Origin: an uncultured Eubacteriales bacterium
Lineage (GTDB): Bacteria > Actinomycetota > Coriobacteriia > Anaerosomatales > JAAXUF01
DNA: 47,776 nt
Direction of reading: 5' to 3'
Assembly: GCA_964644675.1 (NCBI GenBank)
Contig: CAZXWK010000004.1
Location: 36,217-83,992, forward strand
Shown here: positions 32,443 through 47,727 of the stretch, piece after piece
How the letters are laid out: every line of letters begins with the position of its first letter
Numbering within the stretch: position 1 is the first letter of the stretch
Program-made: the position numbers and the translations under genes
Notes under the pieces: model-generated
The model's database searches: none
What the model was told of the DNA's origin: nothing
The model's input: the letters and a program-made list of their open reading frames with translations, nothing else

Positions 32443-33843
32443 CTACTTGCCCTCGTACCAGGTGTCTATCTGGATCGCCGCGTTCTTGTCGCGCGGGTAC
32501 ATGGGCGGCGGGTTGTTGGTGAGACGCGGGTCGTAGTAGAAGTTGCGGTAGTTGAAGCCGGAGCTCAGACCACTGGCCTGCGAATACCCGACGGCGCCCT
32601 TGAACGTCACGGAGTTCTTCTTGGCGGCCGTGAGCGACTTGAGACTCCACTTCGCAGGCGTCGTGCTGGTGTTCCAGTACCACTGCTGCAGGCTGCCCCA
32701 CGTAGAGAGCGGCGCGGCCTGGGGGACCTGCGTCCCCGACTGCGCCAGGATCGCCGCCTGGACGGTGTGATCCTGCGGCATCATGTCGGACCAGTACGGG
32801 TACTGGGTATCGCTCGCGGCGACTAGGCCGCACGTGTAGTTCGTGTCCTCCTCGCCGAGGAGCAGGTCGTCGTACGGGTAGATGTCCTTTCCGGACACGA
32901 TCGTGACCGAGCACGTGTAGGTTCCCGAGACCCAGACATCGTCGTCGAAGTAGAGCGGCTTGTCGCCGGGGATGTTGACCGTACCGACGGGCGACAGAGT
33001 GAACGCGCCGAGCGCGGGGTCGGGATAGGGCGTGAACGGGTGTGCGGCATACTCGGCCGCGGTACGGGGCTTGATGGTGTTGATCGCCGTGATCTTCTGG
33101 ATGGTCGCCTGTGCTCCGTTGAGGGTGACCCGGTACCCAAGCGCGCCGGACGCGGGGTAGTACGTGCCCGCGTTCGTCGCCTCGGTCTTCATCGCGGAGA
33201 TGTCCGCGAGCACGTCGGAGAACTTGACCTCTTTCTGGTTGTTCTTGTAGCCCCCGGGGTAGTTCGTCGAGGCCGACGTTCCCCACGTACAGTTACCCGT
33301 GGCCGTCGCGAGCCCGGTGATGACGCCTGAGTTCGAGAGATTGCCGTTGCAGTGCATCTTGCCGTAGATGGTCGCACCACTCGCGACGCCCTGTGTCGTG
33401 TTGACCAGAAGGACGAAGTCGGCGAACGACGGGAAGCGGACCGTGGACCGAAGCGTCCGCTTGAACCCGTTCTTCAGCGTTCCGACCGAGACGATCTCGA
33501 GTTGCCCCGATGCGTTGATCGACGCCGACGTCTCCCAGGTGCCTTCGTCCATCGTCGTCTTGGGCAGCGACGGGTGTGTCTTGTAGAAGTTGTAGTCCTG
33601 GCTGAGCTGGTAGAGGTACTCGTTGGTGCCCGCGTCGGCCAGCTGCATCGCCTTACTGCGTTGCACGTAGTGTGACGACTGCATCTCACGGTAGGCCACG
33701 AGACCCAACAGCATTGTCGCGAGCATGAACAACACCGACGAGATGACGGCGACCGACGCGAGCGCGACGCCCGCGTCATCCACCGTACCGGCCTGCCATT
33801 TGCGCATGGCTGCAAACAGTCTGAACACGCTACTGCACCTCAT
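32443..33843 (-). CDS. Pilus-associated protein with PilX-N-like hydrophobic N-terminus (putative minor pilin/tip-associated factor)
   Basis: N-terminal hydrophobic segment (GVALASVAVISSVLFMLATMLLGLVAY) without the G-F-T-L-x-E processing motif, then a large Ser/Thr/Gly/Asn/Tyr-rich secreted domain. It is the last gene of the pilus operon. The start may instead be the internal M 12 codons downstream. Confidence 0.55.
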   Translation of the reverse strand: MRCSSVFRLFAAMRKWQAGTVDDAGVALASVAVISSVLFMLATMLLGLVAYREMQSSHYVQRSKAMQLADAGTNEYLYQLSQDYNFYKTHPSLPKTTMDEGTWETSASINASGQLEIVSVGTLKNGFKRTLRSTVRFPSFADFVLLVNTTQGVASGATIYGKMHCNGNLSNSGVITGLATATGNCTWGTSASTNYPGGYKNNQKEVKFSDVLADISAMKTEATNAGTYYPASGALGYRVTLNGAQATIQKITAINTIKPRTAAEYAAHPFTPYPDPALGAFTLSPVGTVNIPGDKPLYFDDDVWVSGTYTCSVTIVSGKDIYPYDDLLLGEEDTNYTCGLVAASDTQYPYWSDMMPQDHTVQAAILAQSGTQVPQAAPLSTWGSLQQWYWNTSTTPAKWSLKSLTAAKKNSVTFKGAVGYSQASGLSSGFNYRNFYYDPRLTNNPPPMYPRDKNAAIQIDTWYEGK

Positions 33844-34510
33844 TCGCGACCGAGCGGATCTTCGCGATAGCCGATGTCGTCACGGTGACCGTCTGATCAC
33901 CGGACGCCGCGCTGTTCGCAACGTTGATACCGACGAGACAGATCTTGGTGGGCGTGTTGAGCGGGTCGGTCGTGTAGGACACTATCGTGAACCCGTGCTT
34001 CTCGCCGTTCGGGCACGTCGCCGCCGAGTCCACCGTGTTCGTGTGGTAGCAGAACACGCCGGTCGTCGTCGCGAGCTTCTTCACGATGCGGCGAGGGGCA
34101 GCCACGGTGCCGTACGTGAACTGGTAGTTGGCGTTCGTCGGCGGTGTGACCGAGCGACGGAGCTCGGACCCGACGACTTCCCACGTCACCAGGTCCGGCT
34201 TTCTGTTGTGGTCGACGTCGGCGTAGAACTGCACCTTCGTTCCCGTTGCGATGGTGAACGCGCCCTTGTCCTGGGTGGCCCCCGGAGTCGGGTCCGGGTT
34301 CTGCTGCGCCTGTCGGATGTCGCGAGTGAACTGCTCGACCGCAAGCTGCGCCTCGGTGGCCGCAGTCGTGCGAGCGGACGAGATGTTCGTGATCGCCTGC
34401 GCTGCGCTGGAAAGCGCGAACATCGCGGCCAGGATCACGCCCAGCAGCGAGCACACCACGAGGAGCTCGGTAAGGGTCAATCCGCTGTCGTCTCGCCAGG
34501 TCTTCATCAC
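33830..34510 (-). CDS. Type IV pilin-like minor pilin (pseudopilin)
   Basis: Class III signal: MMKTWRDDSG/LTLTELLVVCSLLGVILAAMFAL, with a prepilin-peptidase motif (G | L-T-L-x-E-L), 226 aa. Confidence 0.75.
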   Translation of the reverse strand: MMKTWRDDSGLTLTELLVVCSLLGVILAAMFALSSAAQAITNISSARTTAATEAQLAVEQFTRDIRQAQQNPDPTPGATQDKGAFTIATGTKVQFYADVDHNRKPDLVTWEVVGSELRRSVTPPTNANYQFTYGTVAAPRRIVKKLATTTGVFCYHTNTVDSAATCPNGEKHGFTIVSYTTDPLNTPTKICLVGINVANSAASGDQTVTVTTSAIAKIRSVANEVQ

Positions 34511-34520
34511 AGTTCGCGTC

Positions 34521-35972
34521 CTAGTTGCTCTTGGTCATGTTGACGGTCGTCGGGTTGCCCACGGTGATGTTGGCCGTCCTGGGGTTGCTGGGCCATGGCG
34601 ACAGGTTCTTGCACGTCACGTAGTAGGTACCGGGGTCAAGGTCGCGCGAGTTCGTCACCGTACCTCCGCCGGTCGGCTTGTTCACCGTGAAGCTGTCGAT
34701 CATGACCTTGGACGAGTTGCAGATCCTGATCGTGTAGCTGCCGGCGTCGGTGGCGCCGAATGTGAAGTTGATGATCAGCGTGCCCTTCGTCTTCTCCGTC
34801 AGGATGATCGACGGCGTGAGCACGTTGTCGGTCGCCGCGACGACCGTCTTGTTCACGGCAGCCGGTGAGACGTAGAGGTTCTTGCTCGCCGACACGGAGT
34901 ACGATCCGGCGTTGATGCCAGTGAAAAGGGCCTCGCCGTTCGCGTCCGTCGTGGCGGAGTAGGTTCCCGCACCGCTCAGGCTCACGGTGGCCCCGGAGAG
35001 CGGGCTACCCCCGTCGTCCACCACGGTGACCTTGAGTGTGGTCGCCTTGTTCATGGTGAGCGCCGTCGAGTAGGTGCTGTTGCCGGCGATGATGGCCAGC
35101 GGACTCGCGGTACCGACGGTGTAGCCTGTCTTGGAGCCCGTCACCGTATACGTGCCCTTGAGCAGGCCGGTGAAGGTCGCCTTTCCGGACCCGTCGGAGG
35201 TCTTCGTGATCGTGCCTGACGGTCCGCTGATCGTCACGTCAACGCCGGAGAGCGGGGCGCCGCCGAACGTCACGTTGACGATACCCGTGCTCGGCTTGAT
35301 CGCGTCGAGCGGCCACTCGTTCAGGCGTCCTGCGGTGACCGAGACCCCGGCGAGCTTCGGATAGTCGATCGCGTAGCCCAGGCAGCTGCCCGTGATGGTG
35401 ATGTTGCCCTGCGGGATCTTGCCCCAGCGGACCGTTCCGTCGGCCTTGGTGACGAGCGACGAACTCGGGCCCACTGACGGCTGGATGGTCACGGTGCAGC
35501 CCTGCACCGGCTTGCTCGTGTCCACGTCCGTCACGGTGATCTTCACGTCGCCGACGTTGGTGCTGTCGGACTTGCCGGCGACGTTCGTCTCCACCGATAC
35601 CTTGCTGGTGCCGCCCGTCCCCCAAGACACGGTGATGCGCACGGTCTTGCACGACGAGATGTTCTGGAGCGGGTCGATCGCCCACGAGACCTCGGTCGTC
35701 ACGGTGTACACGCCGACGGTGTCATTTGCGGGCAGCGTGCCGGACGGATAGCCGTTGACGGTACCCAGGTCGGCATAGGGCATCGTACGCGCCTGCTCGA
35801 GGCGCTGGTTCGCGATGTCGAGCGCGTTCTCGCGCTTCGCGGTGTTGGCGTTCGCGGACGTGGCGTAGCCGAGCACTCCCATGATCCCCAAGGAGACGAT
35901 CAGGAGCACCGCTGCCGAGATGACCAGCTCCGCGACGGTGAATCCAGACTGATCACGACCGAGCCGCTGCAT
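34521..35972 (-). CDS. Large minor pilin: prepilin N-terminus followed by tandem CarboxypepD_reg/Cna-B-like beta-sandwich repeats
   Basis: MQRLGRDQSG/FTVAELVISAAVLLIVSLGIM prepilin motif. Repeats of the type ADGTVRWGKIPQGNITITGS..GY, SDGSGKATFTGLLKGTYTVTGSKTGY and DANGEALFTGINAGSYSVSASKNLY. 483 aa. Confidence 0.75.
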   Translation of the reverse strand: MQRLGRDQSGFTVAELVISAAVLLIVSLGIMGVLGYATSANANTAKRENALDIANQRLEQARTMPYADLGTVNGYPSGTLPANDTVGVYTVTTEVSWAIDPLQNISSCKTVRITVSWGTGGTSKVSVETNVAGKSDSTNVGDVKITVTDVDTSKPVQGCTVTIQPSVGPSSSLVTKADGTVRWGKIPQGNITITGSCLGYAIDYPKLAGVSVTAGRLNEWPLDAIKPSTGIVNVTFGGAPLSGVDVTISGPSGTITKTSDGSGKATFTGLLKGTYTVTGSKTGYTVGTASPLAIIAGNSTYSTALTMNKATTLKVTVVDDGGSPLSGATVSLSGAGTYSATTDANGEALFTGINAGSYSVSASKNLYVSPAAVNKTVVAATDNVLTPSIILTEKTKGTLIINFTFGATDAGSYTIRICNSSKVMIDSFTVNKPTGGGTVTNSRDLDPGTYYVTCKNLSPWPSNPRTANITVGNPTTVNMTKSN

Positions 35973-36021
35973 ATCCCTGCACCACGATTCTTCTTCCGCC
36001 CCGACTATTCATGTACCCGCT

Positions 36022-36486
36022 TCAGCCTATGGTCTCGAGGACCGCAAGCAGTCCCAGCCGGTAGCTGTCTCGGCCGAATCCGCTGATCTGGCCGACGCAC
36101 GCGGGAGCGATCACGCTGACGTGCCTGAACGACTCCCGCGCCGCTATGTTGGACAGGTGCACCTCGACCACCGGGATGCCGATCGCCGCCACCGCGTCGC
36201 GCAACGCGTACGAGTAGTGCGTGTACGCGCCGGGGTTGAACACCACCCCATCGCACGTCGCGCCGGCGTCGTGCAGCGCGTCGATCAGGGCACCCTCGTG
36301 GTTGCTCTGCACGAACGCGAGCTCGGCGCCCGCCTCGGCCGCGATCTCGGTAAGGAATGCCTCGATCTCGACCAGTCCCTCGGTGCCGTAGACACCGGGT
36401 TCCCGCATGCCGAGCAGGTTGAGGTTCGGACCGTTCAGTACGAGGATCCGCTTCACGGTCAGTCCCCTTCCTTCGAGGTCACCCAC
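36022..36486 (-). CDS. aroQ: Type II 3-dehydroquinate dehydratase
   Basis: [13 protein letters not shown]...HLSNIAARE motifs. The functional start is probably the GTG at 36456 (VKRILVLNG), 2 nt after the aroB stop. Confidence 0.9.
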
Positions 36487-37562
36487 GCGTCGAGGTGTTC
36501 ACGGACGACGAAATCATCGACCGCTTCGCACCGCCAGGAACCCGCGGCTTCAGCGAGGACGAAGCGTATCCGTCCGTCTCGGACCTTCTTGTCCGAGCGC
36601 ATCGCCGCGAGCAGTTCGTCTGCGGGCAATCCGCCCTTCATGGCGAACAGCCCGACCCGGTCGAGCAGAGCATCCTGCCGCCTGACGAACTCCTTGGGTG
36701 CGCCGAGCACCTCGACGGCCAACCGCGAAGCGAATCTGATGCCCTCCGCGACCGCGGCACCGTGCGAGACCGCACCATATCCAGCTACCTTTTCAATGGC
36801 GTGCCCGAGCGTGTGACCGTAGTTCAGACACTCGCGCACTCCTTCCTCTCTTTCATCGGTCGAGACGACGGCGGACTTGAACAGCACGCATCTCTGCACT
36901 GTGTCCGCCGTCACATCCGATTCGCGCACGTTGAGCGCGTCGGCGTGGGCCTCGAGCCACGACATGAAGTCCTCGCCCGAAAGCACCCCGCTCTTGACGA
37001 CCTCCGCCAGCCCGCTGCGCCACTCGCTCTCGGGTAGCGACATCAGCGTCTCGGTGTCCGCGATCACGCGAAGCGGCTGCTTGAAGGCGCCCGCGAGGTT
37101 CTTGCCGGCGCGAAGGTCAACTCCCGTCTTGCCGCCGACCGAAGAGTCGACCTGGGCCAGCAGCGTGGTCGGTACCTGCACGAACTCGATGCCGCGCAGG
37201 TACGTCGCCGCGACGAAACCGCCCAGATCGCCCACCACTCCACCGCCGAGCGCGACCACGAGGTCCTTGCGATCGAGCCCGACGTTGGCGAACGCCTCGA
37301 GCAACTCCCCAGCGACCGCCCACGACTTGGTCTGCTCCCCCGCCTCCACGGTGAAGGGATGCACCTCGAAACCGGCGGCCGCGAGGTTCGCAACGACGCG
37401 CTGGCCGAACATCTCGGCGACGTTGGAGTCCGTGACGACACCGACCCGCTTGCCGTCGAAGACCTCGCCGAGAAGGGAGCCGGCCTCAGACAGCAGGCCC
37501 GGGCCGATCATGACTTCGTAGGGTCGACTACCTGTAGCGACAGAAACGTGGCGCGCCGTCAT
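36459..37562 (-). CDS. aroB: 3-dehydroquinate synthase
   Basis: [30 protein letters not shown] and HTLGHAIE motifs, 367 aa. Confidence 0.9.
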
Positions 37563-38077
37563 GCCTCTTCACGCTCCCGGACGGTATCCGCGACGATGCG
37601 CGCAACGGCCTCCGGCTCGACGTCGACGGTCTCGACGGTCACGTCGGCGACCGCCCGATAGAGCGACTCGCGGGCTTCGAGCAGCGCGGTCGCGGCGAGC
37701 GCGCCGCCAGGGCCGGACAGCAACGGACGGGTGCCGTCCGCTCCAACCCGAGCGAGCGTCTCGGCAGCTGTGACCTTGAGGTATACGACGAGCCCCGTGC
37801 GCTTGAGGAACGCGCGATTGGCGTCTCGAAGCACGACTCCGCCGCCGCAGGCGACGATGCTCGGGGGCTCCTCGGCGAGGCTCTCGAGCGCCGAGGTCTC
37901 TATCGCGCGAAACGCCTGTTCGCCTGCGTCCTCGAAGATCTCGCGCACGCTCCGGCCTGAGGCAGCCTCGATGCGCGCGTCGAGATCGACGAACGGCCGG
38001 TCCAGCTCGGCCGCGACCATCGTGCCGACGGTACTCTTGCCGGCACCCATGAACCCGATGAGGTAGACGTGCGTCAT
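37559..38077 (-). CDS. aroK: Shikimate kinase
   Basis: Walker A GFMGAGKST, 172 aa. Overlaps aroC and aroB ends by 4 nt. Confidence 0.9.
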   Translation of the reverse strand: MTHVYLIGFMGAGKSTVGTMVAAELDRPFVDLDARIEAASGRSVREIFEDAGEQAFRAIETSALESLAEEPPSIVACGGGVVLRDANRAFLKRTGLVVYLKVTAAETLARVGADGTRPLLSGPGGALAATALLEARESLYRAVADVTVETVDVEPEAVARIVADTVREREEA

Positions 38078-39222
38078 CTCGAGATCCTGGACAGGTAGCG
38101 GTCCCGGGACTCGAGCATGTCGCCCATCACGTCGCCGCCGAACTTCTCGATGTAGGCCTGAGCGAGCACGAAGGCGACCTCGGCCTCAGCAACGACCGCG
38201 GCGGCCGGGACGGCGCACACGTCGCTGCGCTCCTTGCTCGCGTCGATCGCCTCAAGCGTATCGAGGTCTACGCTGGCGAGCGGGCTCATCAGCGTGGGGA
38301 TCGGCTTCATGGCCGCGCGCACGATGAGGGTCTCGCCGTTGGTCATCCCACCCTCAAGGCCGCCCGCGCGGTTCGTGGGGCGGGTGAAACCGGTCTGCGG
38401 CGCGTAGTGGATCTCGTCGTGGGCCAGACTGCCGACGCGCGTCGCTGCGCGGAAGCCGTCACCGATCTCGAAGCCCTTGATGGCGGGAATCGAAATGACC
38501 GCCGAGGCAAGCCGCGCGTCGAGCCGCCTGTCGGCCTCGGCGTACGTGCCGAGTCCCGGTACCAGGCCCGTGGCGGTGACGACGAACACGCCGCCCAGCG
38601 ACTCGCCCGCAGCGCGCGCGGCGTCGATCTCGCGCTTCATGCGCTCCGACGCCTCTGGATCGGGACAGCGCACCTCGCTCGCCTCGACCTCAGCCGGGTC
38701 GAAAGGCGGGGGCGTGGTATCGCCCATCGTGACCGAACCGATTCCCGACACGTAGGACGACACCGAGACGCCGAGAGCAGCGAGCATCGCCTTGGCGATG
38801 CCGCCCGCGGCCACCCGCGCGGCCGTCTCTCGGGCGCTCGCGCGCTCGAGGATGTCGCGACAGTCGTCCGAGTCGATCTTCCACACGCCCGCGAGATCGG
38901 CGTGCCCGGGGCGCGGAGCGGTTTCCCTCCCCGACTCGGGTCTGCTCCCGGTGACCGACATCAGGTCCGTCCAGTTGTCCCAGTCGCGGTTCGCGACGGC
39001 CAAGGTCACCGGCGAGCCGATCGTGCGCCCGAAGCGGATTCCGGACAGGACCGTGACCTTGTCCGTTTCGATCCGCTGTCTGCCACCGCGGCCGTAGCCG
39101 CCTTGACGGCGGGCGAGATCCCCGTCGATCGCTTCGAGCGAGACCTCGATACCGGCAGGCACGCCGGTGACGATAGCGGTCAGCGCACGACCGTGTGATT
39201 CACCGGCAGTCGTGTAGCGCAT
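38074..39222 (-). CDS. aroC: Chorismate synthase
   Basis: MRYTTAGESHGRAL...GRSSARETA-like motifs, 382 aa. Confidence 0.9.
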   Translation of the reverse strand: MRYTTAGESHGRALTAIVTGVPAGIEVSLEAIDGDLARRQGGYGRGGRQRIETDKVTVLSGIRFGRTIGSPVTLAVANRDWDNWTDLMSVTGSRPESGRETAPRPGHADLAGVWKIDSDDCRDILERASARETAARVAAGGIAKAMLAALGVSVSSYVSGIGSVTMGDTTPPPFDPAEVEASEVRCPDPEASERMKREIDAARAAGESLGGVFVVTATGLVPGLGTYAEADRRLDARLASAVISIPAIKGFEIGDGFRAATRVGSLAHDEIHYAPQTGFTRPTNRAGGLEGGMTNGETLIVRAAMKPIPTLMSPLASVDLDTLEAIDASKERSDVCAVPAAAVVAEAEVAFVLAQAYIEKFGGDVMGDMLESRDRYLSRISR

Positions 39223-39274
39223 GGCTTGGTCCTTCTGCGGAGGGAATGGGTCCGACGCCGTGGTCGCTGCGAGG

Positions 39275-39895
39275 CTACTTGCTGAGACCTTGGCCGACGG
39301 TCAGGGTGACCTGGCTGTCGCCGTACAACATCACGACGGAGTCGGTGCCGATCGTGAGCACCTTCCACGGCGAGTCCGGGATGGTGTCGCCCTCGGCGAG
39401 GGTATACGACGATCCGTTCCACGCGAAGGTCGCCGTACGCTCACCGTTTGTCGTCTGGATGCTCAACAGGTACAGGGTGTCAGGCTCCGTAGCGCCCGCA
39501 GGCACAGTGCCGGACGCCGTCTCGGAGGCCGTGGACTCAAACGAGGGCTCGATCGTCGGCTCGAACACGTTGCGGAAGGTGAAGGTCGAGTTCAGGGGCT
39601 TCTCGGCAGGGTTGACCGGAACGACCGTCTCGGTCGCGGTGCCCTGCGAGGTCGTCGTCGTGGTGGCGACCGGCGGCGCGGCTCCGAACAACCCGGAGAG
39701 GAGCCCTCCGCCGCTGAGCGCGCTCGAGAAGACGAAGACCATCAGCAACGTTCCGATGACGCCGAGGAGCACGAAGACCGCCACCACGGCGAGCACGATC
39801 TTGGCCGTACGGGAAGCGAGGAAGCCACCACGCTTCTTCTCGAGATCCGCCTCGTCAACGACGACGATGTCGGCGGGGCTGTTGGGATCTGCCAC
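39275..39895 (-). CDS. PilP-like pilus assembly protein (bitopic: short cytoplasmic N-term, TM helix, Thr/Pro linker, C-terminal beta domain)
   Basis: Sits in the pilP slot between pilO and the aro genes. TM helix IVLAVVAVFVLLGVIGTLLMVFVF, and a C-terminal beta-rich domain (LYLLSIQTTNGERTATFAWNGSSYTLAEGD...VMLYGDSQVTLTV). Assignment is by position and architecture only. Confidence 0.5.
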   Translation of the reverse strand: MADPNSPADIVVVDEADLEKKRGGFLASRTAKIVLAVVAVFVLLGVIGTLLMVFVFSSALSGGGLLSGLFGAAPPVATTTTTSQGTATETVVPVNPAEKPLNSTFTFRNVFEPTIEPSFESTASETASGTVPAGATEPDTLYLLSIQTTNGERTATFAWNGSSYTLAEGDTIPDSPWKVLTIGTDSVVMLYGDSQVTLTVGQGLSK

Positions 39896-39910: not shown

Positions 39911-40525
39911 CTACTGTGCGGGCGCCGGCACCGGCGTCGCCGCCGCCGAAGCGTTCTGACTCGCGGGAATGACGTACGCCTCGATCTGCAGGACCGTCGA
40001 GACGGACCACTCGGGCAACTGGGGATTCGATGGCGACGCGTTGTCGAGGAGGCTGCTTCCCGACTCCATGATGCGGATGCCGCGGTTGAGCTCCATGATC
40101 CGCTTGAGGTAGTCGATGGTATCCGCCCACGTGCCCCAGACCTTCATCTCCATGGGAATGGAGAGGTACGTGGCGTCCGCGCTGCTCTTGGGATCGGCGG
40201 GGGCCACGCTCTGCAGCTGGACGCCCGACGCGAACGCCGCGTCCTGCAGATCGATGATCAGCGACGGCAGGTCCGGGTTCTCCGGCACCATCGTCGCAAG
40301 CTCGATCCACTGCGCGTCCGTGTCCGCAGCCCGGTTCTTGCTGGTCTGGCGCTGAGCGAGCAGCGCCTGCGCCGTCTGAACCTGCTGCTGCGCGGCGGCA
40401 ACGTCGCTGTCCATGCCGCGAAGCCTCCCGATCTGTGGCCACACGAGCAGCGCCCCCAAGACGACGAGGACGAGCACGAGACCGACGACCACGAGTATCA
40501 GTTGTTCGCGAGGTCCCAGTTTCAT
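39911..40525 (-). CDS. pilO: Type IV pilus assembly protein PilO
   Basis: N-terminal TM helix (ILVVVGLVLVLVVLGALLVW), a coiled coil, then a PilO periplasmic domain; 204 aa, directly downstream of pilN. Confidence 0.8.
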   Translation of the reverse strand: MKLGPREQLILVVVGLVLVLVVLGALLVWPQIGRLRGMDSDVAAAQQQVQTAQALLAQRQTSKNRAADTDAQWIELATMVPENPDLPSLIIDLQDAAFASGVQLQSVAPADPKSSADATYLSIPMEMKVWGTWADTIDYLKRIMELNRGIRIMESGSSLLDNASPSNPQLPEWSVSTVLQIEAYVIPASQNASAAATPVPAPAQ

Positions 40526-40539: not shown

Positions 40540-41205
40540 TTACTGGCCGGTGCTAGGCGGGGCAGGAACGGCGGGGTTGCCGCTCGCGGTGGCCGGGGCA
40601 GGAGGAGGAATGATCTTCCCTGTCGATTCGAACTGGACGACGTCCTCCGGAAGCGGCTGGGCAGCTGTGGCGCTCGCTGCCGTGCGCTGATAGGAGTTGT
40701 TGAGCGCGTTCACGAGCCAGACGTCGTAGATGTCCGGCAGCTCTCCGAGTCGAACGAGTGTCTTCGCGACGGACTTGTAGCCGACATCCATGGACTGGCT
40801 CGGCGAGCGTGGGGTCATGCCGCGGATGCGCAGGCCCGCGGTCTCGCCCACGACCATCGTGTCGAGCCAGACCTCGTCCGGCAGCACGAGGGAGACCTCC
40901 TCGGCGATATTGCCCACGTCCAACCGGCTCGCAAGCGCCCGCTGGGCGATCGCGGAGCGAGCAGCGAGCTGCTGCTCCTTCTGCTCGAAGATGCTGAAGG
41001 CGTCCGCTTGGGCCTGAAGCGCAGCGCTCTGCTCCTTCAGCGACTGGAGCTCGGCGTTCTTGGCCCCGCCACTGAGCATGAGGTACGCGTAGATCAGAAC
41101 CAGGATCGCCGCGAGGATGGCGAACGCGATGAAGACGTAGGGATACCACTTCTCCCAGCGCCGCTTCTCGAGTACCTCGGGCGGGAGCAGGTTGATGCGC
41201 ACCAT
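40540..41205 (-). CDS. pilN: Type IV pilus assembly protein PilN
   Basis: Canonical N-terminus MVRINLLPPEV, a single TM helix and a coiled coil; 221 aa. Confidence 0.85.
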   Translation of the reverse strand: MVRINLLPPEVLEKRRWEKWYPYVFIAFAILAAILVLIYAYLMLSGGAKNAELQSLKEQSAALQAQADAFSIFEQKEQQLAARSAIAQRALASRLDVGNIAEEVSLVLPDEVWLDTMVVGETAGLRIRGMTPRSPSQSMDVGYKSVAKTLVRLGELPDIYDVWLVNALNNSYQRTAASATAAQPLPEDVVQFESTGKIIPPPAPATASGNPAVPAPPSTGQ

Positions 41206-42342
41206 TTAGGCGACACCCCCCAGCGCCAGGCCGATCGCAGCAGCGCTCCCCATGCGATCGGCGAGTACGGCCTGCTCTACGGCACCTGATGCCTGGATCT
41301 GAACGAGAGGGTCGCCGAGAACCACCTCGGTCTGGAGGCCCTTCTCGAGGTAGTTCGGGAGGTTGCGCAGCTGGGACCCCGTGCCGGTCAGGTAGATCCT
41401 GCGGATCGTCCGGACCTGGGTGGCCTGCGTGAGGTAGTAGTCGAGCGAACGGCGCACTTCGGCGATGAATTTGTTCGCCTCGCGCTCGAGCGCCTCCTGC
41501 GCGACCTGCATGACCTGAGGCTCCCCGCCGACGGGCGCCGGTTCGGGCGCCTCGATGCTGGGAAGGCCCGCGCGGATCTTGAGTTCTTCGGCCTCGTCGA
41601 ACGTCAGATTGAGCACGTTGGCGATGGCCTGGGTGAACTGGTTGCCGGCGAGCGACGACACGCGGGTGAATCGCGGGATGCCCCGCTCGACGACCGCGAT
41701 GTTCGTCAGCCCCGAGCTGATGTGGACCACGCCGAGCGCCTCGCCCGCGTCAGTCTCGTCCGCGAGCCAGCCGGTCTGGCTGCCGAGAAGCGCTCGCACG
41801 AGCGCAAACGCCGTGACGTCGACCTGAGCCAGCTTCAGTCCTGAACCCGTGACGGCGTCGACGACGCTCTGGATCATGTCTCGCTGTGCCGCGACGAGCA
41901 GCACTTCCATCATGTGCTCGTCGCCCGGAGTCATGTAGTCGCCGATGATCTGGAAGTCGAGGATGGCCTCTTCAACCGGGATCGGGATGTAGTCCTGGGC
42001 CTGATACTGGATGGCGCCCGCAAGCTCGTCGCGCTCCATGAACGGGAGGTCGATGAGTCGGACCACGACCTTCTGGTTCGAGACCCCCACCGCGACGTCT
42101 TTGACCCGGATGCCCGTGCGCTTCCACAGTTCGCGAATGGCCCCGGACACGGCTTCGGGATCGACAATCTCACCCTCGACGACCGCGCCGAACGGCATGG
42201 CCACGGCGCCATAGGCGACAAGGGTGTTCCCCGAACCGGATTGTTTGATCTGGGCGGCGCGTATGTAGTCGGTCCCGATGTCGAGGCCGACCGGTGGTGG
42301 TACCGCGCCGAAGGATGCAGGAGCCAACGCGTCCTCCCTCAA
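41206..42342 (-). CDS. pilM: Type IV pilus assembly protein PilM (actin-like ATPase fold)
   Basis: VGLDIGTDYIRAAQ...GVSNQKVVVRLIDLP; an FtsA/actin-like fold followed by pilN. The likely start is the TTG at ~42327 (GAGGGAGGA plus 4 nt) rather than the TTG at 42342. Confidence 0.85.
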   Translation of the reverse strand: MREDALAPASFGAVPPPVGLDIGTDYIRAAQIKQSGSGNTLVAYGAVAMPFGAVVEGEIVDPEAVSGAIRELWKRTGIRVKDVAVGVSNQKVVVRLIDLPFMERDELAGAIQYQAQDYIPIPVEEAILDFQIIGDYMTPGDEHMMEVLLVAAQRDMIQSVVDAVTGSGLKLAQVDVTAFALVRALLGSQTGWLADETDAGEALGVVHISSGLTNIAVVERGIPRFTRVSSLAGNQFTQAIANVLNLTFDEAEELKIRAGLPSIEAPEPAPVGGEPQVMQVAQEALEREANKFIAEVRRSLDYYLTQATQVRTIRRIYLTGTGSQLRNLPNYLEKGLQTEVVLGDPLVQIQASGAVEQAVLADRMGSAAAIGLALGGVA

Positions 42343-42474: not shown

Positions 42475-42490
42475 CGTGACTCACGTCACA
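42475..42490. promoter_or_regulatory. CRP/FNR-family-like palindromic site CGTGA-N6-TCACA in the pilD-pilM intergenic region
   Basis: CGTGACTCACGTCACA read directly, 9/10 match to TGTGA-N6-TCACA. It is 5 nt below the pilD stop and about 150 nt upstream of the pilM start. Confidence 0.45.
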
Positions 42491-42495
42491 CTGCG

Positions 42496-43323
42496 TCATC
42501 CGAACAGCGACAGGTACCATCCCCACACCGCCGGCCCGAAGGCCGTGGTCGCGACCGCCCCGAGCGCCAGGAAGGGCCCCAGCGGGAACTTGAGTTTGCT
42601 GGCCGGCACACGCTTCAACCGGGAAGCCGACACACCGTAGAAGGCGCCCAGAACACTCCCCACGAAGAAGGCGAAGACGCCCCACACGCCGAGGAACACG
42701 CCGATCGCGGCCAACAGCTTGACGTCCCCCATGCCGAAGCCCTGCGCGGCGCGGACGCGGTAGTAGACGAGCGCGATGGCGGCCGCGATGCCGGCCGATG
42801 CCACCGCCCCGAGCAACGCCGCGACCAGCGGCTGGCCCCACGTGCCCGGAAACGTCGTCAAGAGCGGAGCGAGCGGGACGCCCGTGAACTGCGCGGCCGT
42901 CGCGCAAAGCGTGCCACCGACGAAGAGCGTGCCGACGATGGGGTTTGGAAGGCGCATCGTGTCGATGTCGATGAACGACAGGATCAGCAGCACGTAGAAG
43001 AAGAAGATCGCGACCGCCGCCTGAGGCGTGGCGCCATACAGCACCCCTGCCAGAACCCACAGCAGGCCCGAGATGAGCTCGACGAGCGGATAGCGGATCG
43101 ATATCGGGGTGCCGCAATGCCGACAGCGGCCGCGCAGCAGCACCGCCCAGGAGAGCAGAGGGATGTTGTCGTACCACGCGATCTCGTTCTCGCACACCGG
43201 GCAGTGCGACGGCGGAGAGACGACCGACTCGCCACGCGGAAGCCGCCAGATCAGAACGTTGCCGAAGGATCCGAACAGCAGTCCGAACAGAGCGAGCAGC
43301 CCAAGATAGAGCGCGTTCGGCAA
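42496..43323 (-). CDS. pilD: Prepilin peptidase (A24 family; leader peptidase/N-methyltransferase PilD)
   Basis: CPVCENEIAWYDNIP (Zn-finger-like cysteines), and catalytic Asp-containing motifs (SFIDIDTMRLPN...GMGDVKLLAAIG). The probable start is the TTG at 43323 (GGGGGAGGA plus 4 nt; MPNALYLGLLALFGLLFGSF...). The track start at 43371 adds 16 aa. Confidence 0.85.
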   Translation of the reverse strand: MPNALYLGLLALFGLLFGSFGNVLIWRLPRGESVVSPPSHCPVCENEIAWYDNIPLLSWAVLLRGRCRHCGTPISIRYPLVELISGLLWVLAGVLYGATPQAAVAIFFFYVLLILSFIDIDTMRLPNPIVGTLFVGGTLCATAAQFTGVPLAPLLTTFPGTWGQPLVAALLGAVASAGIAAAIALVYYRVRAAQGFGMGDVKLLAAIGVFLGVWGVFAFFVGSVLGAFYGVSASRLKRVPASKLKFPLGPFLALGAVATTAFGPAVWGWYLSLFG

Positions 43324-43401
43324 AGCATCCTCCCCCATCGTCATCCGGTACGTGCATGGTAGCCCAAGCAACCTGAACGCCGCACGGCCCGATGACCGTG
43401 C

Positions 43402-43445
43402 GGCGACAGAAAGAAAGGAGGCTGGCGGTTGCCCGCCAGCCTCCT
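43402..43445 (-). terminator. Rho-independent terminator of pilA (13-bp perfect stem AGGAGGCTGGCGG / CCGCCAGCCTCCT, 4-nt loop, then a U-rich tract)
   Basis: Read directly. The minus-strand tail after the stem is CCTTTCTTTCTGTC. A second 9-bp hairpin follows (43379..43404). Confidence 0.8.
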
Positions 43446-43473
43446 GACCACAAACCAGCTCGTGCTTGCAGAC

Positions 43474-43845
43474 CTACGGGTGGGTACCGTGATCCGTGGC
43501 GCTGCAGGTGACCGTGATGGTCGCGGTCGGGTTGGCGCTCACCAGCGAGTAGGTGCCGCCGGCGTTGCAGACCGGAGGAGTCTTGACGTACTTCGGCGAC
43601 AGAGCGGCCAGGACCGACGCGTAGTCCGTGAACGTCGCGACGGCGCCAGACTCGTCCTGATCGGCGCGGTAGGTCTGGAAGGCGCCCTCAACGGTGCGCT
43701 CGTTGGCGTAGCAGCTCTTCTTCTGAGCGGACGCCTTGGCGGAGTTGAAGACCGGGACTGCGATAGCGACAAGAATACCGATAATAAGCACGACGACCAT
43801 GAGTTCCACGAGGGTAAAGCCCTCATCCTTACGGAACATCTTCAT
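43474..43845 (-). CDS. pilA: Type IVa major pilin (PilA-like)
   Basis: MKMFRKDEG/FTLVELMVVVLIIGILVAIAVPVF, the class III prepilin signal with Glu5. C-terminal Cys pair (CNAGGTYS...TVTC). Strong RBS AAAGGAGGTG plus 7 nt. 123 aa. Flanked by terminators. Confidence 0.9.
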   Translation of the reverse strand: MKMFRKDEGFTLVELMVVVLIIGILVAIAVPVFNSAKASAQKKSCYANERTVEGAFQTYRADQDESGAVATFTDYASVLAALSPKYVKTPPVCNAGGTYSLVSANPTATITVTCSATDHGTHP

Positions 43846-44000
43846 GACCTCGCACCTCCTTTCCCCCTGCTGGGGACATGGGAAGGATCTGCCTCCCCGA
43901 TTCCGACATTAGCTGTATCGGCCCCCTTTGGCCGTACTTGAGTCGAAACCTGAGGGAATTTTCATCTTCTGCACGAGCATCCGGTGAACGGTCGGCGAAG

Positions 44001-44016
44001 AGTGACCACGGTCACA
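44001..44016. promoter_or_regulatory. CRP/FNR-family-like palindromic site AGTGA-N6-TCACA upstream of pilA
   Basis: AGTGACCACGGTCACA read directly, 9/10 match to TGTGA-N6-TCACA. It is about 155 nt upstream of the pilA ATG, immediately after the pilC terminator. Confidence 0.45.
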
Positions 44017-44019
44017 CAG

Positions 44020-44054
44020 GACGAGGGGCCGGCAACGACCCCCGGCCCCTCGTC
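44020..44054 (-). terminator. Hairpin downstream of pilC (13-bp perfect stem GACGAGGGGCCGG / CCGGCCCCTCGTC, 9-nt loop)
   Basis: Perfect inverted repeat, 19 nt after the pilC stop. No U-tract, which is common in high-GC genomes. Confidence 0.6.
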
Positions 44055-44072
44055 TATGAAGTGCGTTCTGGG

Positions 44073-45281
44073 CTACTGGACGAGCGTGATGACCTGGAAC
44101 ATCGGCATGTACAGCGCGACGACCATGCCACCGACGATGACGCCGAGCGAGGCCATCATCAGCGGCTCGATGAGCGAGGTGAGGCCGTCGGTGGCCGTCG
44201 AGACCTCCTCGTCGTAGAAGTCCGCGATCTTGTTCAGCATCGCGTCGAGAGCGCCCGTCTCCTCGCCGACCGCGATCATCTGCACGAGCATCGACGGGAA
44301 CACCTTGGACTCCGAGAGCGGCTTCGCGATCGTCTCGCCTTCCTTGATCGCCGACCGCGCGTGCTTGACAGCGTCCGCGACGACCTCGTTTCCCGACGTG
44401 TCCGCGACAATGTCGAGCGCCGAGAGGATCGGCACACCCGCCGAGACGAGCGTACCGAAGGTCCTGGTGAACTTCGCGAGCGCGATCTTGCGCGTCAGCT
44501 GGCCGAAGACCGGCATGTTGAGCTTGGCGCCGTCCCAGATGCGCTTGCCGGGGCCTCCGGACCACCACTTGAACACGAAGATCAGGGCAACGAGCCCGAC
44601 CGCGGATACCGCGCCCCAGATACTCGCGACGAAGTTCGATGCGTTGACGAGCACCTGCGTCATGAACGGGAGCTGTCCGCCCATGTCGGCGAACATCTTC
44701 TCGAAGGTCGGCACGACGAAGATCATCATCGCGACCAGGACCACGAGGACGAGACCACCCATGGCGATCGGGTACGTCATCGCGGACTTGATCTTCGCCT
44801 TGAGGGCCTGCTCGTTCTCGAAGTGGTCCGCGACACGCGCGAGCACCTCGTCCAATACACCACCTGTCTCACCGGCACGCACCATGTTGACGAAGATGGG
44901 TGGGAACACCTTGGGGTGCTTGCCCAGAGAATCCGAGAGCGACTGGCCGGCCTCGACGTCCTTGCCGATCTGCGAGATGACCGTGCGCAGTCCCGCACTC
45001 TCGGTCTGCGCGCCAAGGATCGAGAGGCACTTGGTGAGCGAGAGTCCGGCGTTGATCATCGTCGCGAACTGGCGGGCGAAGATCGTCACGTCCTTGGGCT
45101 TCACGCCCGTGCCGAACGTGATCTCGTTCAGCGAGGCAAGGCCACCCTGCTGGTCGAGCTCGAGGATGATGTAGCCCATCTGCGTGAGCTTCGCCTGCAC
45201 GGCGTCCTTGCTGTCGCCTTCGAGCTTGCCCTTGACGACCTTGCCGGCCTTGTCCCGTACGGCGTAGTTGAACGTAGCCAT
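44073..45281 (-). CDS. pilC: Type IV pilus inner-membrane platform protein PilC (GspF family)
   Basis: Two T2SF domains; MATFNYAVRDKAGKVVKG...; 402 aa. Confidence 0.9.
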   Translation of the reverse strand: MATFNYAVRDKAGKVVKGKLEGDSKDAVQAKLTQMGYIILELDQQGGLASLNEITFGTGVKPKDVTIFARQFATMINAGLSLTKCLSILGAQTESAGLRTVISQIGKDVEAGQSLSDSLGKHPKVFPPIFVNMVRAGETGGVLDEVLARVADHFENEQALKAKIKSAMTYPIAMGGLVLVVLVAMMIFVVPTFEKMFADMGGQLPFMTQVLVNASNFVASIWGAVSAVGLVALIFVFKWWSGGPGKRIWDGAKLNMPVFGQLTRKIALAKFTRTFGTLVSAGVPILSALDIVADTSGNEVVADAVKHARSAIKEGETIAKPLSESKVFPSMLVQMIAVGEETGALDAMLNKIADFYDEEVSTATDGLTSLIEPLMMASLGVIVGGMVVALYMPMFQVITLVQ

Positions 45282-45316
45282 GATGCGCTCCTGCCCCTGT
45301 GCGTAGCGTTCCTGCG

Positions 45317-46990
45317 CTACACGATGACGCGGACGACCTCTTCGATAGACGTCTGACCCATTCGGACCTTCTCAAGCCCGTCCTGCCGCAGCGTGAGCAT
45401 GCCCTGCTCCATCGCGACCTCGCGAATCTCCTCGGAGGTGGCTTCCTCGACGCACAACCGGCTGATCTCCTCGGACATCATCAGCACCTCGTGCACACCG
45501 ATGCGGCCGCGGTAGCCGGTGCCGCCGCATTTCTTGCAGCCGACGGCACGGTAGACGGTCTCAGGCAGATTATCGGCAGTGTAGCCCGCCTCGATGAGTA
45601 CTTCGGGCCGAGGGGTCCATGGCTGGCGGCAATCGCTGCACAGCTTGCGCGCGAGGCGCTGACCCAGAACGCAGTCGACCGCCGACGAAACGAGAAACGG
45701 CTCGACGCCCATCTCGATGAGACGAGTCACGGCACCCGGCGCGTCATTCGTGTGGAGCGTCGAGAGAACCAAGTGCCCGGTCAGTGCCGACTCGATCGCG
45801 ATCTGCGCGGTCTCTTCGTCTCGAATCTCACCGACCAGGATGACGTCGGGCGAGCATCTGAGGAACGAGCGGAGCGCTCGGGCGAACGTCAGCCCGGCGC
45901 GCGTGTTGATCTGGCACTGGTTGACGCCGGGAAGCCGGTACTCGACCGGGTCCTCGGCGGTGATGATGTGTCGGCCGGGGTCGTTGAGCACGTTGATCGC
46001 CGCGTAGAGCGATGTGGACTTGCCAGAGCCGGTCGGACCGGTCACGAGGATCGCGCCGTAGGGTTTGGTGAAGGAGCTCTCGAAGCGCTCCAGGGATGAC
46101 GGCAGGAAGCCCAGGTCCGAGAGCTGGAGCAGGATCGAGTCCTTGCGCAGGATTCGGAGGACGACCCGTTCGCCGTAGACCGTCGGCAGGGTCGACACGC
46201 GGAAGTCCATCTTGTGCCCGCCGACCGACACCGCGCAGTGGCCGTCCTGCGGCTTGCGGGACTCGGCGATGTCCATCTCGGCCATGATCTTGAAGCGGGA
46301 GATGATCGACGTCTGGATCGACTTGGGTGCGGGTGGCATCGCCTCGTGCAGAACGCCGTCGACGCGGAACCGGACGCGAAGGTCGGACTCCTGCGGCTCG
46401 ACGTGGATGTCGGACGCGCGATCGGCGACCGCTTTCTGAATGATGTAGTTGACCAACTTGACGGCCGGGGCCTCGCTCTCGACACCCGTGAGCTGGCCGA
46501 GCTCCTCGTCGCTGATGTCCTCGGTGCCGAGGAACATGTCGTCCTCGGTGTGCTCGGCGACCTTGTAGTACTCCTCGATCGCCGCGATGATGTCGTCTTT
46601 GGTCGAGATCGCGGGCTTGATGTCGTGCGCGGTGATGATGCGCAGGTCGTCGAGCGCGAGGACATTCTGTGGATCGGCCATCGCCACGAGCAGGACGCCG
46701 TCGCTCACCTCCACGGGCATGAGCGTGTAGCGGACCGCGAGCTCTCTGGAGACCAGCGCGACGGCCGCGGGCTCGGGGCGGCGCTCGGCGAAGTCGATGT
46801 ACTCGATGCCGATCTGGCGCGCCATGACCGAAAGGATGGCGCCCTGGCTTGCGTAGCCCAGATCGACCAGGACGCGACCGAGCGGGCTGCCCGTCGCGCG
46901 GTGGACCTCGAGCGCGTCGTTCAGCTGCTTGTCGGTGATGATGCCCGCCCGCATGAGGAGCTGGCCGAGCCGTTGTCCTGCTTCCGCCAC
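45317..46990 (-). CDS. pilB: Type IV pilus assembly ATPase PilB (GspE family)
   Basis: N-terminal GSPII_E_N-like domain (LGQLLMRAGIITDKQLNDALE), Walker A GPTGSGKST, Asp/His boxes and a tetracysteine motif (CSDC...CKKCGGTG). GTG start preceded by AGAAGAGG. 557 aa. Confidence 0.9.
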   Translation of the reverse strand: MAEAGQRLGQLLMRAGIITDKQLNDALEVHRATGSPLGRVLVDLGYASQGAILSVMARQIGIEYIDFAERRPEPAAVALVSRELAVRYTLMPVEVSDGVLLVAMADPQNVLALDDLRIITAHDIKPAISTKDDIIAAIEEYYKVAEHTEDDMFLGTEDISDEELGQLTGVESEAPAVKLVNYIIQKAVADRASDIHVEPQESDLRVRFRVDGVLHEAMPPAPKSIQTSIISRFKIMAEMDIAESRKPQDGHCAVSVGGHKMDFRVSTLPTVYGERVVLRILRKDSILLQLSDLGFLPSSLERFESSFTKPYGAILVTGPTGSGKSTSLYAAINVLNDPGRHIITAEDPVEYRLPGVNQCQINTRAGLTFARALRSFLRCSPDVILVGEIRDEETAQIAIESALTGHLVLSTLHTNDAPGAVTRLIEMGVEPFLVSSAVDCVLGQRLARKLCSDCRQPWTPRPEVLIEAGYTADNLPETVYRAVGCKKCGGTGYRGRIGVHEVLMMSEEISRLCVEEATSEEIREVAMEQGMLTLRQDGLEKVRMGQTSIEEVVRVIV

Positions 46991-47088
46991 CTGCGACCTC
47001 TTCTACGACTGCGGATGCGGCGCGGCGAATCGCACGCGCACGGCTTCACCATGATAGCGCGACGCGCGCCCCGAGGCGTACCTCGAGA

Positions 47089-47727
47089 TTATCGGGTGCT
47101 GCCGCCCGGCGCTTTAAGGTCGCCGAGAAGTACGTCCGCGTACTTGCGGAACTGGTCGTAGGTCTTGGTCCCGGCCTTCACCCCTACCCGGTGCTCGCCG
47201 AACCACATCTCGACGGGCGCGACCATCACCAGGTCCGGCACGCCTCTCGCGCGGTCCGTCCGCGCTGCGGTGACCGGCGCCGAGGCCGAACGGACGGCCT
47301 GGCCGGCGCGCGCGTCCGGGAGCGCCGTGCGAACGCGAGCCCGCGGGCGCGATCGACGAGGCGCGGCCGTGGCGGGTGTGGCGGGCGCCTGCGCAGGCTC
47401 AGGAGTGGGCGCGGGAATGGTGTGCGCCACCGCTGCGGGGCGCGGCGAGCTGGCGCTTGGGGCCGCCGCGGGCACGCTCGGAGCGCGAGCCGGTGTCGGC
47501 ACGGCGACTCGTGGCGCGGGCGCGTCCGGGAGCGCCACCGAAGGCAGATCCTGCTGCTCTCGGAAGACCGATTCCCAGAAGGCGGAATCGGCCTCGGGCG
47601 CCGTGGGGATTCCCGGCTCGGGCACGTCGGGCACGGTCACGGTTGCCGGCGGGGGCGACCATGCCGGCTCGGGAACCGGCGGTGCCGGGGCAGGTTCGGG
47701 CACGGGCGCTGCGACCACGTCGGACAC
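47089..47727 (-). CDS. Hypothetical Pro/Ala-rich protein with a short conserved-looking C-terminal domain; may extend beyond the window
   Basis: About 170 aa of PxP/AP low complexity, then VMVAPVEMWFGEHRVGVKAGTKTYDQFRKYADVLLGDLKA. Only the ORF shape and its position upstream of pilB support it. The true start is uncertain. Confidence 0.4.
   Translation of the reverse strand: MSDVVAAPVPEPAPAPPVPEPAWSPPPATVTVPDVPEPGIPTAPEADSAFWESVFREQQDLPSVALPDAPAPRVAVPTPARAPSVPAAAPSASSPRPAAVAHTIPAPTPEPAQAPATPATAAPRRSRPRARVRTALPDARAGQAVRSASAPVTAARTDRARGVPDLVMVAPVEMWFGEHRVGVKAGTKTYDQFRKYADVLLGDLKAPGGSTR

Follow-up and report, generated by a model that had tools for sequence, protein, structure and literature searches.

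A conserved type IVa pilus locus with a PilP/GspC-type subunit beside shikimate genes in an uncultured, probably single-membrane member of the Coriobacteriia

Results

Gene content and organization of the locus

The window analysed here, a 47.8-kb stretch of an uncultured bacterium (contig CAZXWK010000004.1), carries a type IVa pilus cluster together with four shikimate-pathway genes on the minus strand, from position 47727 down to 32443 (Table 1). Read along that strand, the genes encode PilB, PilC, PilA, PilD, PilM, PilN, PilO and a PilP homologue, then AroC-AroK-AroB-AroQ, and finally three minor pilins. Every gene named for this region in an earlier note, drawn up from the sequence alone, was recovered in its place on the minus strand, which carries nearly all real genes of the window. 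We regard it as highly probable that the region is a chromosomal type IVa pilus biogenesis locus of an uncultured, most probably single-membrane member of the Coriobacteriia.

Short gaps and 4-nt overlaps, described before as spacings of 0-20 nucleotides (nt), are confined to the stretch from pilM to the last minor pilin (-4 to 52 nt), and do not hold around pilB, pilC, pilA, pilD and pilM, where the intergenic gaps measure 98, 35, 227, 135 and 168 nt; pilA and pilD are flanked by gaps of 98-227 nt. The guanine-plus-cytosine (GC) content is 64-72% across the window and 0.64-0.68 in the pilus locus, against the roughly 70% attributed to the genome.

A related set, for which one genome per species was scanned and onto which the window proteins were mapped by tblastn, comprises 37 species-level loci (labelled L with a number). 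All 37 species are uncultured Coriobacteriia, Anaerosomatales or unclassified Actinomycetota, except "Coriobacteriaceae bacterium EMTCatB1"; records labelled Eubacteriales share 78-89% identity with the window in PilB and 80-90% in elongation factor P (EF-P), and thus belong to the same clade. The labels Coriobacteriia and Anaerosomatales among the relatives bear out the proposed Actinomycetota lineage. The order pilB-pilC-pilA-pilD...pilM-N-O-P-aroC-K-B-Q...pepQ-efp recurs throughout the 37 loci. Among the loci that include the pilP-aroC junction, only L007 breaks it, by having the minor pilins between the two genes. In L016, L020, L024, L031, L032 and L036, some genes (pilB, pilC, pilM, aroC or aroB) are split into two or three tblastn pieces; these splits are most likely assembly frameshift errors and not pseudogenes.

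Table 1. Features of the pilus-shikimate region, in the order of transcription (aa, amino acids; MFE, minimum free energy; ORF, open reading frame; PWM, position weight matrix score)
Feature	Position in window	Strand	Evidence or remark
Pro/Ala-rich ORF, 212 aa, upstream of pilB	47089..47727	-	conserved ~45-aa C-terminus; system membership uncertain
Sigma-28/WhiG-type motif TAAAG-N16-CCGATA	47090..47116	-	~100 nt upstream of pilB; PWM 21.3, second in window
pilB, extension ATPase with N-terminal MshEN	45317..46990	-	T2SSE 1.7e-138, MshEN 4.3e-22
pilC, platform protein	44073..45281	-	T2SSF, two stretches, 3.6e-70
GC-rich hairpin after pilC stop	44020..44053	-	MFE -40.3 kcal/mol, z -3.2; tail not T-rich
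Sigma-28/WhiG-type motif TCAAG-N15-(G)CCGATA	43916..43941	-	73 nt upstream of pilA ATG; PWM 24.4, best in window
pilA, major pilin, 123 aa	43474..43845	-	N_methyl 9.2e-9; 9-aa leader
Intrinsic terminator after pilA	43416..43445	-	13-bp stem, 10 GC pairs, loop 4, T-rich tail; MFE -38.5 kcal/mol
pilD, prepilin peptidase	42496..43338	-	A24_N_bact 4.1e-35, Peptidase_A24 6.4e-13
Weaker sigma-28-like candidate TAAAG-N..-GTCGAAA	42425..42457	-	pilD-pilM gap; PWM 15.8, fourth in window
pilM, actin-like alignment protein	41206..42327	-	PilM_2 6.2e-58
pilN	40540..41205	-	0-nt gap to pilM; INLLP; profile match to M. xanthus PilN
pilO	39911..40525	-	PF04350 1.6e-11, 44.9 bits vs cutoff 22
PilP/GspC-type homologue	39275..39895	-	TIGR03021 sub-cutoff match; predicted HR-domain fold
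aroC, chorismate synthase	38074..39222	-	PF01264 6.5e-114
aroK, shikimate kinase	37559..38077	-	PF01202 1.9e-46; 4-nt overlap with aroC
aroB, 3-dehydroquinate synthase	36459..37562	-	DHQ_synthase 2.1e-44, DHQS_C 1.9e-39
Sigma-28-like site in aroB	~36851-36883	-	PWM 16.7, third in window; ~400 nt upstream of aroQ
aroQ, type II dehydroquinase	36022..36456	-	PF01220 1.3e-58
Modular minor pilin, 483 aa, G/FTVAE and three prealbumin-like repeats	34521..35972	-	N_methyl 1.6e-3
Minor pilin, 225-226 aa, G/LTLTE	33830..34507	-	N_methyl 2.1e-5, 24.3 bits vs cutoff 21.2
Large pilin-like protein, 466 aa, no Glu5 (..DDAG/VALAS)	32443..33828	-	pilin alpha1 helix, sheet and beta-solenoid (model)
Very strong hairpin, last minor pilin to pepQ	32383..32432	-	MFE -38.8 kcal/mol, z -6.1, 0/200 shuffles as good

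Core machinery

The component content supports the assignment of PilA, PilB, PilC, PilD, PilM, PilN and PilO to a type IVa system, neither Tad nor ComG. The Pfam searches proposed as a check place PilB, PilC, PilA, PilD, PilM and PilO above threshold, but miss PilN and PilP, for which other evidence was drawn on. PilB (557 aa) is of the full-length PilB/GspE type; it narrowly misses the NCBIfam model TIGR02538 (628 bits, cutoff 675.65) and passes NF053729, a model of the cyclic diguanylate (c-di-GMP) motif (59.9 bits, cutoff 38), and its tandem MshEN motif is kept in 7 orthologues. Because PilB passes this curated model of a c-di-GMP-binding MshEN motif, c-di-GMP control at the ATPase is plausible. 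PilC scores 403-433 bits with the NCBIfam PilC models, under their equivalog cutoffs. Exact look-ups of the PilB and PilC products gave no record, probably owing to differing start calls; those of PilD and the PilP homologue did.

The PilA precursor begins MKMFRKDEG/FTLVE (the slash marks cleavage), a class III signal peptide with G-1, F+1, E+5 and a short leader; the mature protein has 114 aa, and the N-terminus is near-invariant across 25 species. PilD has 280 aa, and every match listed in its homologue search belongs to the same clade; in other Actinobacteria a solitary prepilin peptidase gene may stand beside aroC. The type IVa-specific PilM-PilN-PilO alignment subcomplex is present: PilM passes TIGR01175 (233.5 bits, cutoff 133); the N-terminal INLLP motif of PilN is invariant in 29 species, and a profile of these 29 species matches Myxococcus xanthus PilN (3jc8_Na) at E 6.4e-7. 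Tandem pilA-like gene pairs occur in L003, L008, L017, L024 and L033, each copy having its own sigma-28-like motif in L008 and L033, which suggests two major pilins or pilin variation.

The locus had been described as complete, which is too generous because it has no PilT: no retraction ATPase is encoded in the window. A second ATPase gene does lie directly upstream of pilC in L012, L018, L019, L023, L025, L026 and L037, with 36-50% identity to PilB, mostly in the core ATPase region. Its identity was scanned in two of these seven loci and is PilT in both (L019:3-977 and L023:1-771; TIGR01420, 486 and 398 bits; GIRNLIREGK motif); the L012 match looks different. The related loci with this second ATPase are of the Anaerosomatales/EMTCatB1 type, whereas in the subclade of the window pilB abuts pilC with no PilT nearby.

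Three other machines were considered and rejected. A Tad (type IVc) identity disagrees with the single PilC with two T2SSF stretches, with a TadA-family score of 47.5 versus 373 bits, and with a 123-aa pilin that is not Flp; ComG, given the presence of PilMNOP, and the type II secretion system (T2SS) were rejected on component content.

A PilP homologue with GspC-like topology

The PilP-like protein is the most unusual item of the locus and was underrated in the earlier note. Its gene directly follows pilO after a 15-nt gap, and its product consists of a short cytoplasmic tail, one transmembrane (TM) helix, a low-complexity disordered linker, an invariant F-x-x-R-x-x-F-x-P motif (conserved as FTFRNVFxP) and a C-terminal HR-domain beta sandwich, the conserved C-terminal domain having ~65 residues. 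The TM helix is predicted at residues 29-61 behind a cytoplasmic N-terminal tail, and there is no lipobox; this topology is GspC-like and differs from that of the PilP lipoprotein.

The C-terminal domain matches the NCBIfam PilP model TIGR03021 at E 1.8e-7 (32.2 bits, cutoff 34.65), and PDB sequence searches with the family and with its C-terminal half gave no PilP or GspC match. An AlphaFold2 model built from a 35-sequence alignment reaches a predicted local distance difference test (pLDDT) score of ~96 over residues 137-206 and shows the HR-domain beta-sandwich fold; the ten best PDB matches found with it by Foldseek are all PilP, GspC HR or GspB. On this predicted fold, we regard the protein as a genuine homologue of HR-domain proteins whose membrane topology resembles that of GspC.

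The family is sizeable: the protein collection holds 111 homologues, all from metagenomes or metagenome-assembled genomes, the few named ones being Coriobacteriia, and 700 clusters at 50% identity were obtained at E <= 1e-3. Three members have been automatically named PilP by the JGI pipeline. Reviews treat PilP as a part that couples to the outer membrane (PMC6916266) and describe it as missing from monoderm type IVa pili (PMC6916266; PMC9765702), an absence termed "logical" for Gram-positives because the partner secretin is missing (PMC6916266); in Neisseria, PilP is among the eight proteins required for minimal pilus assembly (PMC6916266; PMC10191384). None of the papers that our literature search turned up describes a PilP homologue from a Gram-positive system.

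Minor pilins and their mobile cassette

The 483-aa minor pilin had been credited with Cna-B-like repeats: the repeats do match the Cna-B-type models SpaA (6.4e-15) and SdrD_B (1.1e-10), but more weakly than the best model, CarboxypepD_reg (1e-27, three stretches). The 466-aa protein matches no Pfam or NCBIfam family. Its AlphaFold2 model (pLDDT 89, predicted template-modelling score 0.77, helix at residues 12-70) has DUF3494-type beta-helix proteins as best Foldseek matches (E 6e-3), and the sole organism-labelled sequence among its 33 homologues is from the Coriobacteriia. A missing Glu5 is also typical of GspK/PilX-type tip subunits, and the 466-aa protein is probably a tip subunit. The prealbumin-like domains of the one large pilin and the beta-solenoid of the other suggest an adhesive tip.

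All related loci have the three minor pilins, of about 500, 200 and 450-550 aa, and their genes form a cassette at one of three positions. Most species have it in the pilD-pilM interval; in L023, where this was examined in detail, its first gene comes next after pilD. In L007 the cassette separates pilP from aroC, and in the window, L003, L008, L011, L016, L024 and L039 it follows aroQ.

Shikimate genes beside the pilus genes

The four Aro enzymes are identified without ambiguity and are ordinary full-length family members (aroQ has a 144-aa gene call in L001). Actinobacteria, including species that have no pili, probably share aroC-aroK-aroB-aroQ-pepQ-efp as their standard succession of these housekeeping genes; we take Rv2540c-Rv2534c of Mycobacterium tuberculosis to be an example. 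If so, the aro genes stand in their usual place, with the pil genes as neighbours. In the explanation that we find best, the aro quartet has ordinary housekeeping functions and still holds its ancestral actinobacterial position beside pepQ and efp. Pilus genes enclose the quartet in this lineage only because the minor-pilin cassette sits downstream of aroQ, and the "embedded" appearance of the aro genes is thus a consequence of where the cassette landed in one subclade.

The likeness to a Gram-negative arrangement that had been pointed out is real, in that the pil-aro junction mirrors the proteobacterial pilMNOPQ-aroK-aroB neighbourhood (PMC7545093), which is well documented (PMC7545093; PMC5542475). 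It might be taken to mean that the shikimate genes are functionally coupled to piliation, through a co-regulated supply of aromatic amino acids or a shikimate-derived modification of pilin: the pilP-to-aroC junction is retained in all related loci that cover it, L007 excepted; the same pil-aroK-aroB linkage exists in Proteobacteria (PMC7545093); no terminator separates pilP from aroC or aroQ from the minor pilins; and in Acinetobacter aroB and aroK lie inside a pilus operon (PMC5542475). Even so, we consider such coupling unlikely. The enzymes are standard and full-length, and most related loci have their minor pilins upstream, so that the aro genes merely follow the pil genes; the aro-pepQ-efp order, moreover, is probably the usual one in pilus-free Actinobacteria as well.

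Putative promoters and predicted transcription units

Alignment of the regions upstream of pilA revealed two invariant blocks, T[A/C]AAG-N15/16-CCGATA, which match the flagellar (FliA)/WhiG sigma-28 consensus with TAAA at -35 and GCCGATAA at -10 (PMC8325347). Of the 29 sequences examined from the window and related loci, 28 have this motif 57-81 nt ahead of pilA, and the site ahead of pilB is placed in the same way in L016, L031 and L039. The strict sigma-28 pattern has two matches in the window (pilA and pilB, both on the pil strand) against 0.013 expected, and over the related loci it falls 49 times on the pil strand and once on the other. A PWM scan of the whole window put its top four sites inside the locus (pilA, pilB, aroB and the pilD-pilM gap), and the motif also occurs close upstream of minor-pilin ORFs where the cassette lies between pilD and pilM. 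A sigma-70 consensus scan returned no promoter, and neither a WhiG nor an RsiG gene is found in the window.

Hairpins stand on both sides of pilA, which fits a monocistronic unit, and the folding scan found none at the pilP-aroC or aroQ-pilin junctions. The hairpin between the last minor pilin and pepQ covers with its 3' arm both the Shine-Dalgarno sequence and the GTG start codon of pepQ, and may serve to terminate transcription, to mask pepQ translation, or both. From the arrangement of motifs and hairpins, the simplest model would comprise three transcription units, pilBC, pilA and pilMNOP-aroCKBQ-minor pilins, and we infer that sigma-28/WhiG-type promoters probably start them, as in Rubrobacter, whose pilus cluster has three WhiG-driven transcription units (PMC8325347).

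Further RNA features were observed. L008 has at ~17800-17850 a hairpin that is similar in its TAGAATCC...GGATTCT arms but differs in the inner stem. Most pilA leaders (window 43846-43915 and equivalents in 28 loci) have a GC-rich hairpin soon after the putative start site, with differing sequences, and the window subclade has an extra CCCC/GGGG hairpin beside the ribosome-binding site; RNAalifold on a MAFFT alignment of these leaders yields two invariant pairs only, the hairpins being seen in single-sequence folds. A c-di-GMP riboswitch was sought upstream of pilA, as in Clostridioides, and the Rfam scan of the locus gave no riboswitch or other RNA family.

Discussion

Our analysis indicates a genuine type IVa pilus locus, conserved and well formed, in what is probably a monoderm. 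The sequence shows gene identities, folds, synteny, motifs and hairpins; all activities, the operon structure, a role in adhesion and the single membrane of this particular organism are inferred from them. Four traits of the locus are noteworthy: a PilP/GspC-type subunit without a secretin, the deep pilMNOP-aro synteny, a cassette of minor pilins that is mobile, and putative promoters of the WhiG type in another class of Actinomycetota.

True type IVa systems had been held to be rarely described in high-GC Gram-positives. This is only partly right, since pili of Actinomycetota have already been predicted or characterised: Denise et al. predicted type IVa pili in the phylum; type IV pili have been characterised on Actinoplanes zoospores and linked to WhiG in Rubrobacter, and predicted in Cellulomonadaceae, Jonesiaceae, Sanguibacteraceae and Cryptosporangiaceae, WhiG control being shown or predicted in Rubrobacter and several other families (PMC8325347; PMC12871210). 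What those two papers leave unmentioned is Coriobacteriia, PilP and a shikimate linkage. The window shares with Rubrobacter radiotolerans, R. xylanophilus and Actinoplanes missouriensis the phylum, the Gram-positive context, clustered pil genes and sigma-28/WhiG-type promoter motifs. Both systems have a link to c-di-GMP, here through the MshEN domain of PilB, there through RsiG-WhiG; the window differs in belonging to the Coriobacteriia, and neither a PilP homologue nor a shikimate neighbourhood is reported in their papers.

Among Firmicutes, the monoderm type IVa pili of Streptococcus sanguinis, Clostridium perfringens and C. difficile likewise comprise PilB, PilC, PilD, PilM, PilN and PilO, one major pilin and three minor ones, of which some are modular adhesins, without a secretin (PMC6916266). 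However, according to reviews they lack PilP (PMC6916266; PMC9765702), whereas the window locus has an HR-domain homologue. Their pilin leaders are long and PilT is encoded within the locus or close to it, whereas the window has no PilT and a 9-residue leader. In Pseudomonas, Neisseria, Vibrio and Acinetobacter, too, pilM-N-O-P leads on the same strand into the genes for shikimate kinase and dehydroquinate synthase (PMC7545093; PMC5542475), and the HR beta sandwich is common to proteobacterial PilP and the homologue in the window. In contrast to that arrangement, the window has no pilQ, places aroC before aroK and aroQ after aroB, anchors PilP by a TM helix instead of a lipid, and keeps pilB, pilC, pilA and pilD in the same locus, not elsewhere. 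Unlike T2SS GspC, the homologue has no PDZ domain or coiled coil after the HR domain; GspL, GspM and GspD are missing, and the neighbours are of the type IVa kind (PilM and an INLLP-bearing PilN).

In the mechanism that we propose, PilD would remove 9-residue leaders from PilA and the three minor pilins, and a PilB hexamer, with its MshEN c-di-GMP-binding module, would turn the PilC platform and so polymerise PilA. PilM would dock on the INLLP tail of PilN, and PilN and PilO would form a membrane alignment ring that the PilP/GspC homologue, held by its own TM helix without a lipid anchor, would join as a fourth alignment protein. The three minor pilins would prime assembly and occupy the tip, one with its three prealbumin-like domains and another with its beta-solenoid.

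Several results weigh against the interpretation as a type IVa pilus of a single-membrane cell under sigma-28 control. PilB and PilC both score beneath NCBIfam equivalog cutoffs, the Pfam PilN model does not detect PilN (E 0.17), the NCBIfam PilP model falls 2.4 bits short of its cutoff, and Pfam PilP finds no match to the PilP homologue even at E 10. No PilT or second T2SSE ATPase is found in the window, nor within 10 kb in window-type loci. With two mismatches in its -10 element, the degenerate site ahead of pilM is a candidate only; the promoter assignment draws on consensus and conservation, and no sigma factor gene lies in the window. The envelope type of the source organism is taken from its relatives only, and the genomes of the cultured Anaerosoma and Parvivirga are not among the 37 pattern matches, which makes any link to their appendages indirect.

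Could the machine instead be a competence (Com-type) pseudopilus, serving chiefly DNA uptake? PilA is small, and among NCBIfam models it matches that of the major pilin ComGC best (E 3.9e-14) and GspG next; no PilT lies in the window; and transformation filaments are common in Gram-positive bacteria (PMC6916266). Yet the ComGC, ComGA and ComGB models all stay under their cutoffs (52.6/75, 255.7/300 and 146.6/240 bits), and ComGA spans only residues 182-447 of a full-length, MshEN-bearing PilB. PilM, PilN, PilO and PilP are not part of ComG machines (PMC10191384), neither comEA nor comEC is found in the window, the two large modular tip pilins suggest adhesion, and related loci have PilT. We therefore think a primary role in DNA uptake improbable.

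The PilP homologue poses the question of its partner. Without a secretin, it most likely stabilises PilN-PilO or contacts the cell wall. We suggest, tentatively and with more doubt than confidence, that it acts independently of a secretin in a single-membrane cell, as a fourth subunit of the PilMNO ring or as a link to peptidoglycan or the pilus exit site, and that pilMNOP-aro is a vestige of an ancestral pilMNOPQ-aroKB cluster minus its secretin gene. If this is true, the vestige is a genomic trace of an outer-membrane-bearing ancestor of Actinomycetota.

A cryptic diderm, or a secretin-like conduit encoded elsewhere, would give the homologue its conventional task of coupling PilNO to a secretin N0 domain. 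The well-folded HR domain has been kept, and its only known partner is the secretin N0 domain; the arrangement resembles pilMNOPQ-aroKB with pilQ removed; the secretin search covered only the window and the unassigned ORFs of the related loci; and the wall of Anaerosoma tenue has been termed "thick bilayered" (PMC9686372). The claim that the window has no pilQ nevertheless stands: no secretin appears among the Pfam-scanned genes of the whole 47.8 kb, nor among the 46 ORFs that had stayed unassigned in the related loci (21 of them with an N_methyl match), and this absence is expected for a monoderm. The anchor is a GspC-like TM helix instead of a PilP lipobox. We know of no diderm Actinomycetota with a secretin, which also counts against a diderm. 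Moreover, the first cultured Anaerosomatales (formerly OPB41) have Gram-positive walls in thin sections, are non-motile and bear numerous pili-like appendages (PMC9686372). A diderm envelope thus seems quite improbable to us, and we retain the single-membrane reading.

In one of these strains, Parvivirga hydrogeniphila, the appendages form with ferrihydrite only and are absent with soluble Fe(III) citrate (PMC9686372), which might point to an electron-conducting pilus for insoluble Fe(III) reduction; we hold this to be very improbable, as the paper credits multihaem cytochromes and mentions no pilin genes (PMC9686372), PilA with its 114 aa and globular domain is not of the truncated Geobacter type, and the genomes of the cultured strains are not among the pattern matches. 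The description of these strains names no pilus genes (PMC9686372), and the locus offers a possible genetic explanation for appendages that their describers had linked to no genes.

A natural PilP without a secretin, in a family that extends over at least 37 species and hundreds of sequence clusters, would open the way to a direct study of its secretin-independent role. The pilMNOP-shikimate neighbourhood common to Actinomycetota and Proteobacteria bears on the age of this gene order and on the loss of outer-membrane parts in single-membrane lineages, and WhiG-type (sigma-28) control of pili would now extend to a further actinobacterial class.

Flanking genes and additional features

The flanking synteny proposed for the window agrees with our annotation: recN/SteA (Rv1697-like)/MctB (Rv1698-like)/pyrG and efp/acc/xseB/dxs/tlyA are present, all housekeeping genes in actinobacterial order.

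The Pro/Ala-rich ORF upstream of pilB matches no Pfam or NCBIfam family, and homologues stand upstream of pilB in L003, L007, L008, L011, L016, L024 and L032. The C-terminus of the protein reads ..MVAPVEMWFGxHRVGVKxGTKTYDQFRxYA... The L011 version (L011:1056-2654) has 533 aa and an N-terminal TM segment, and is preceded by a small Ras-like GTPase (L011:352-1056) reminiscent of the polarity GTPases that steer pili elsewhere.

Elsewhere in the window, two large polytopic membrane proteins of 401 and 780 aa match no Pfam family; they are overlapping ORF calls at 12671-16014 (minus strand) and 15817-17892 (plus strand). The pair adjoins the window's only sizeable plus-strand gene, for a MurJ flippase extended at its N-terminus by a long Arg-rich stretch, and together they are possibly a cell-wall biosynthesis cluster.

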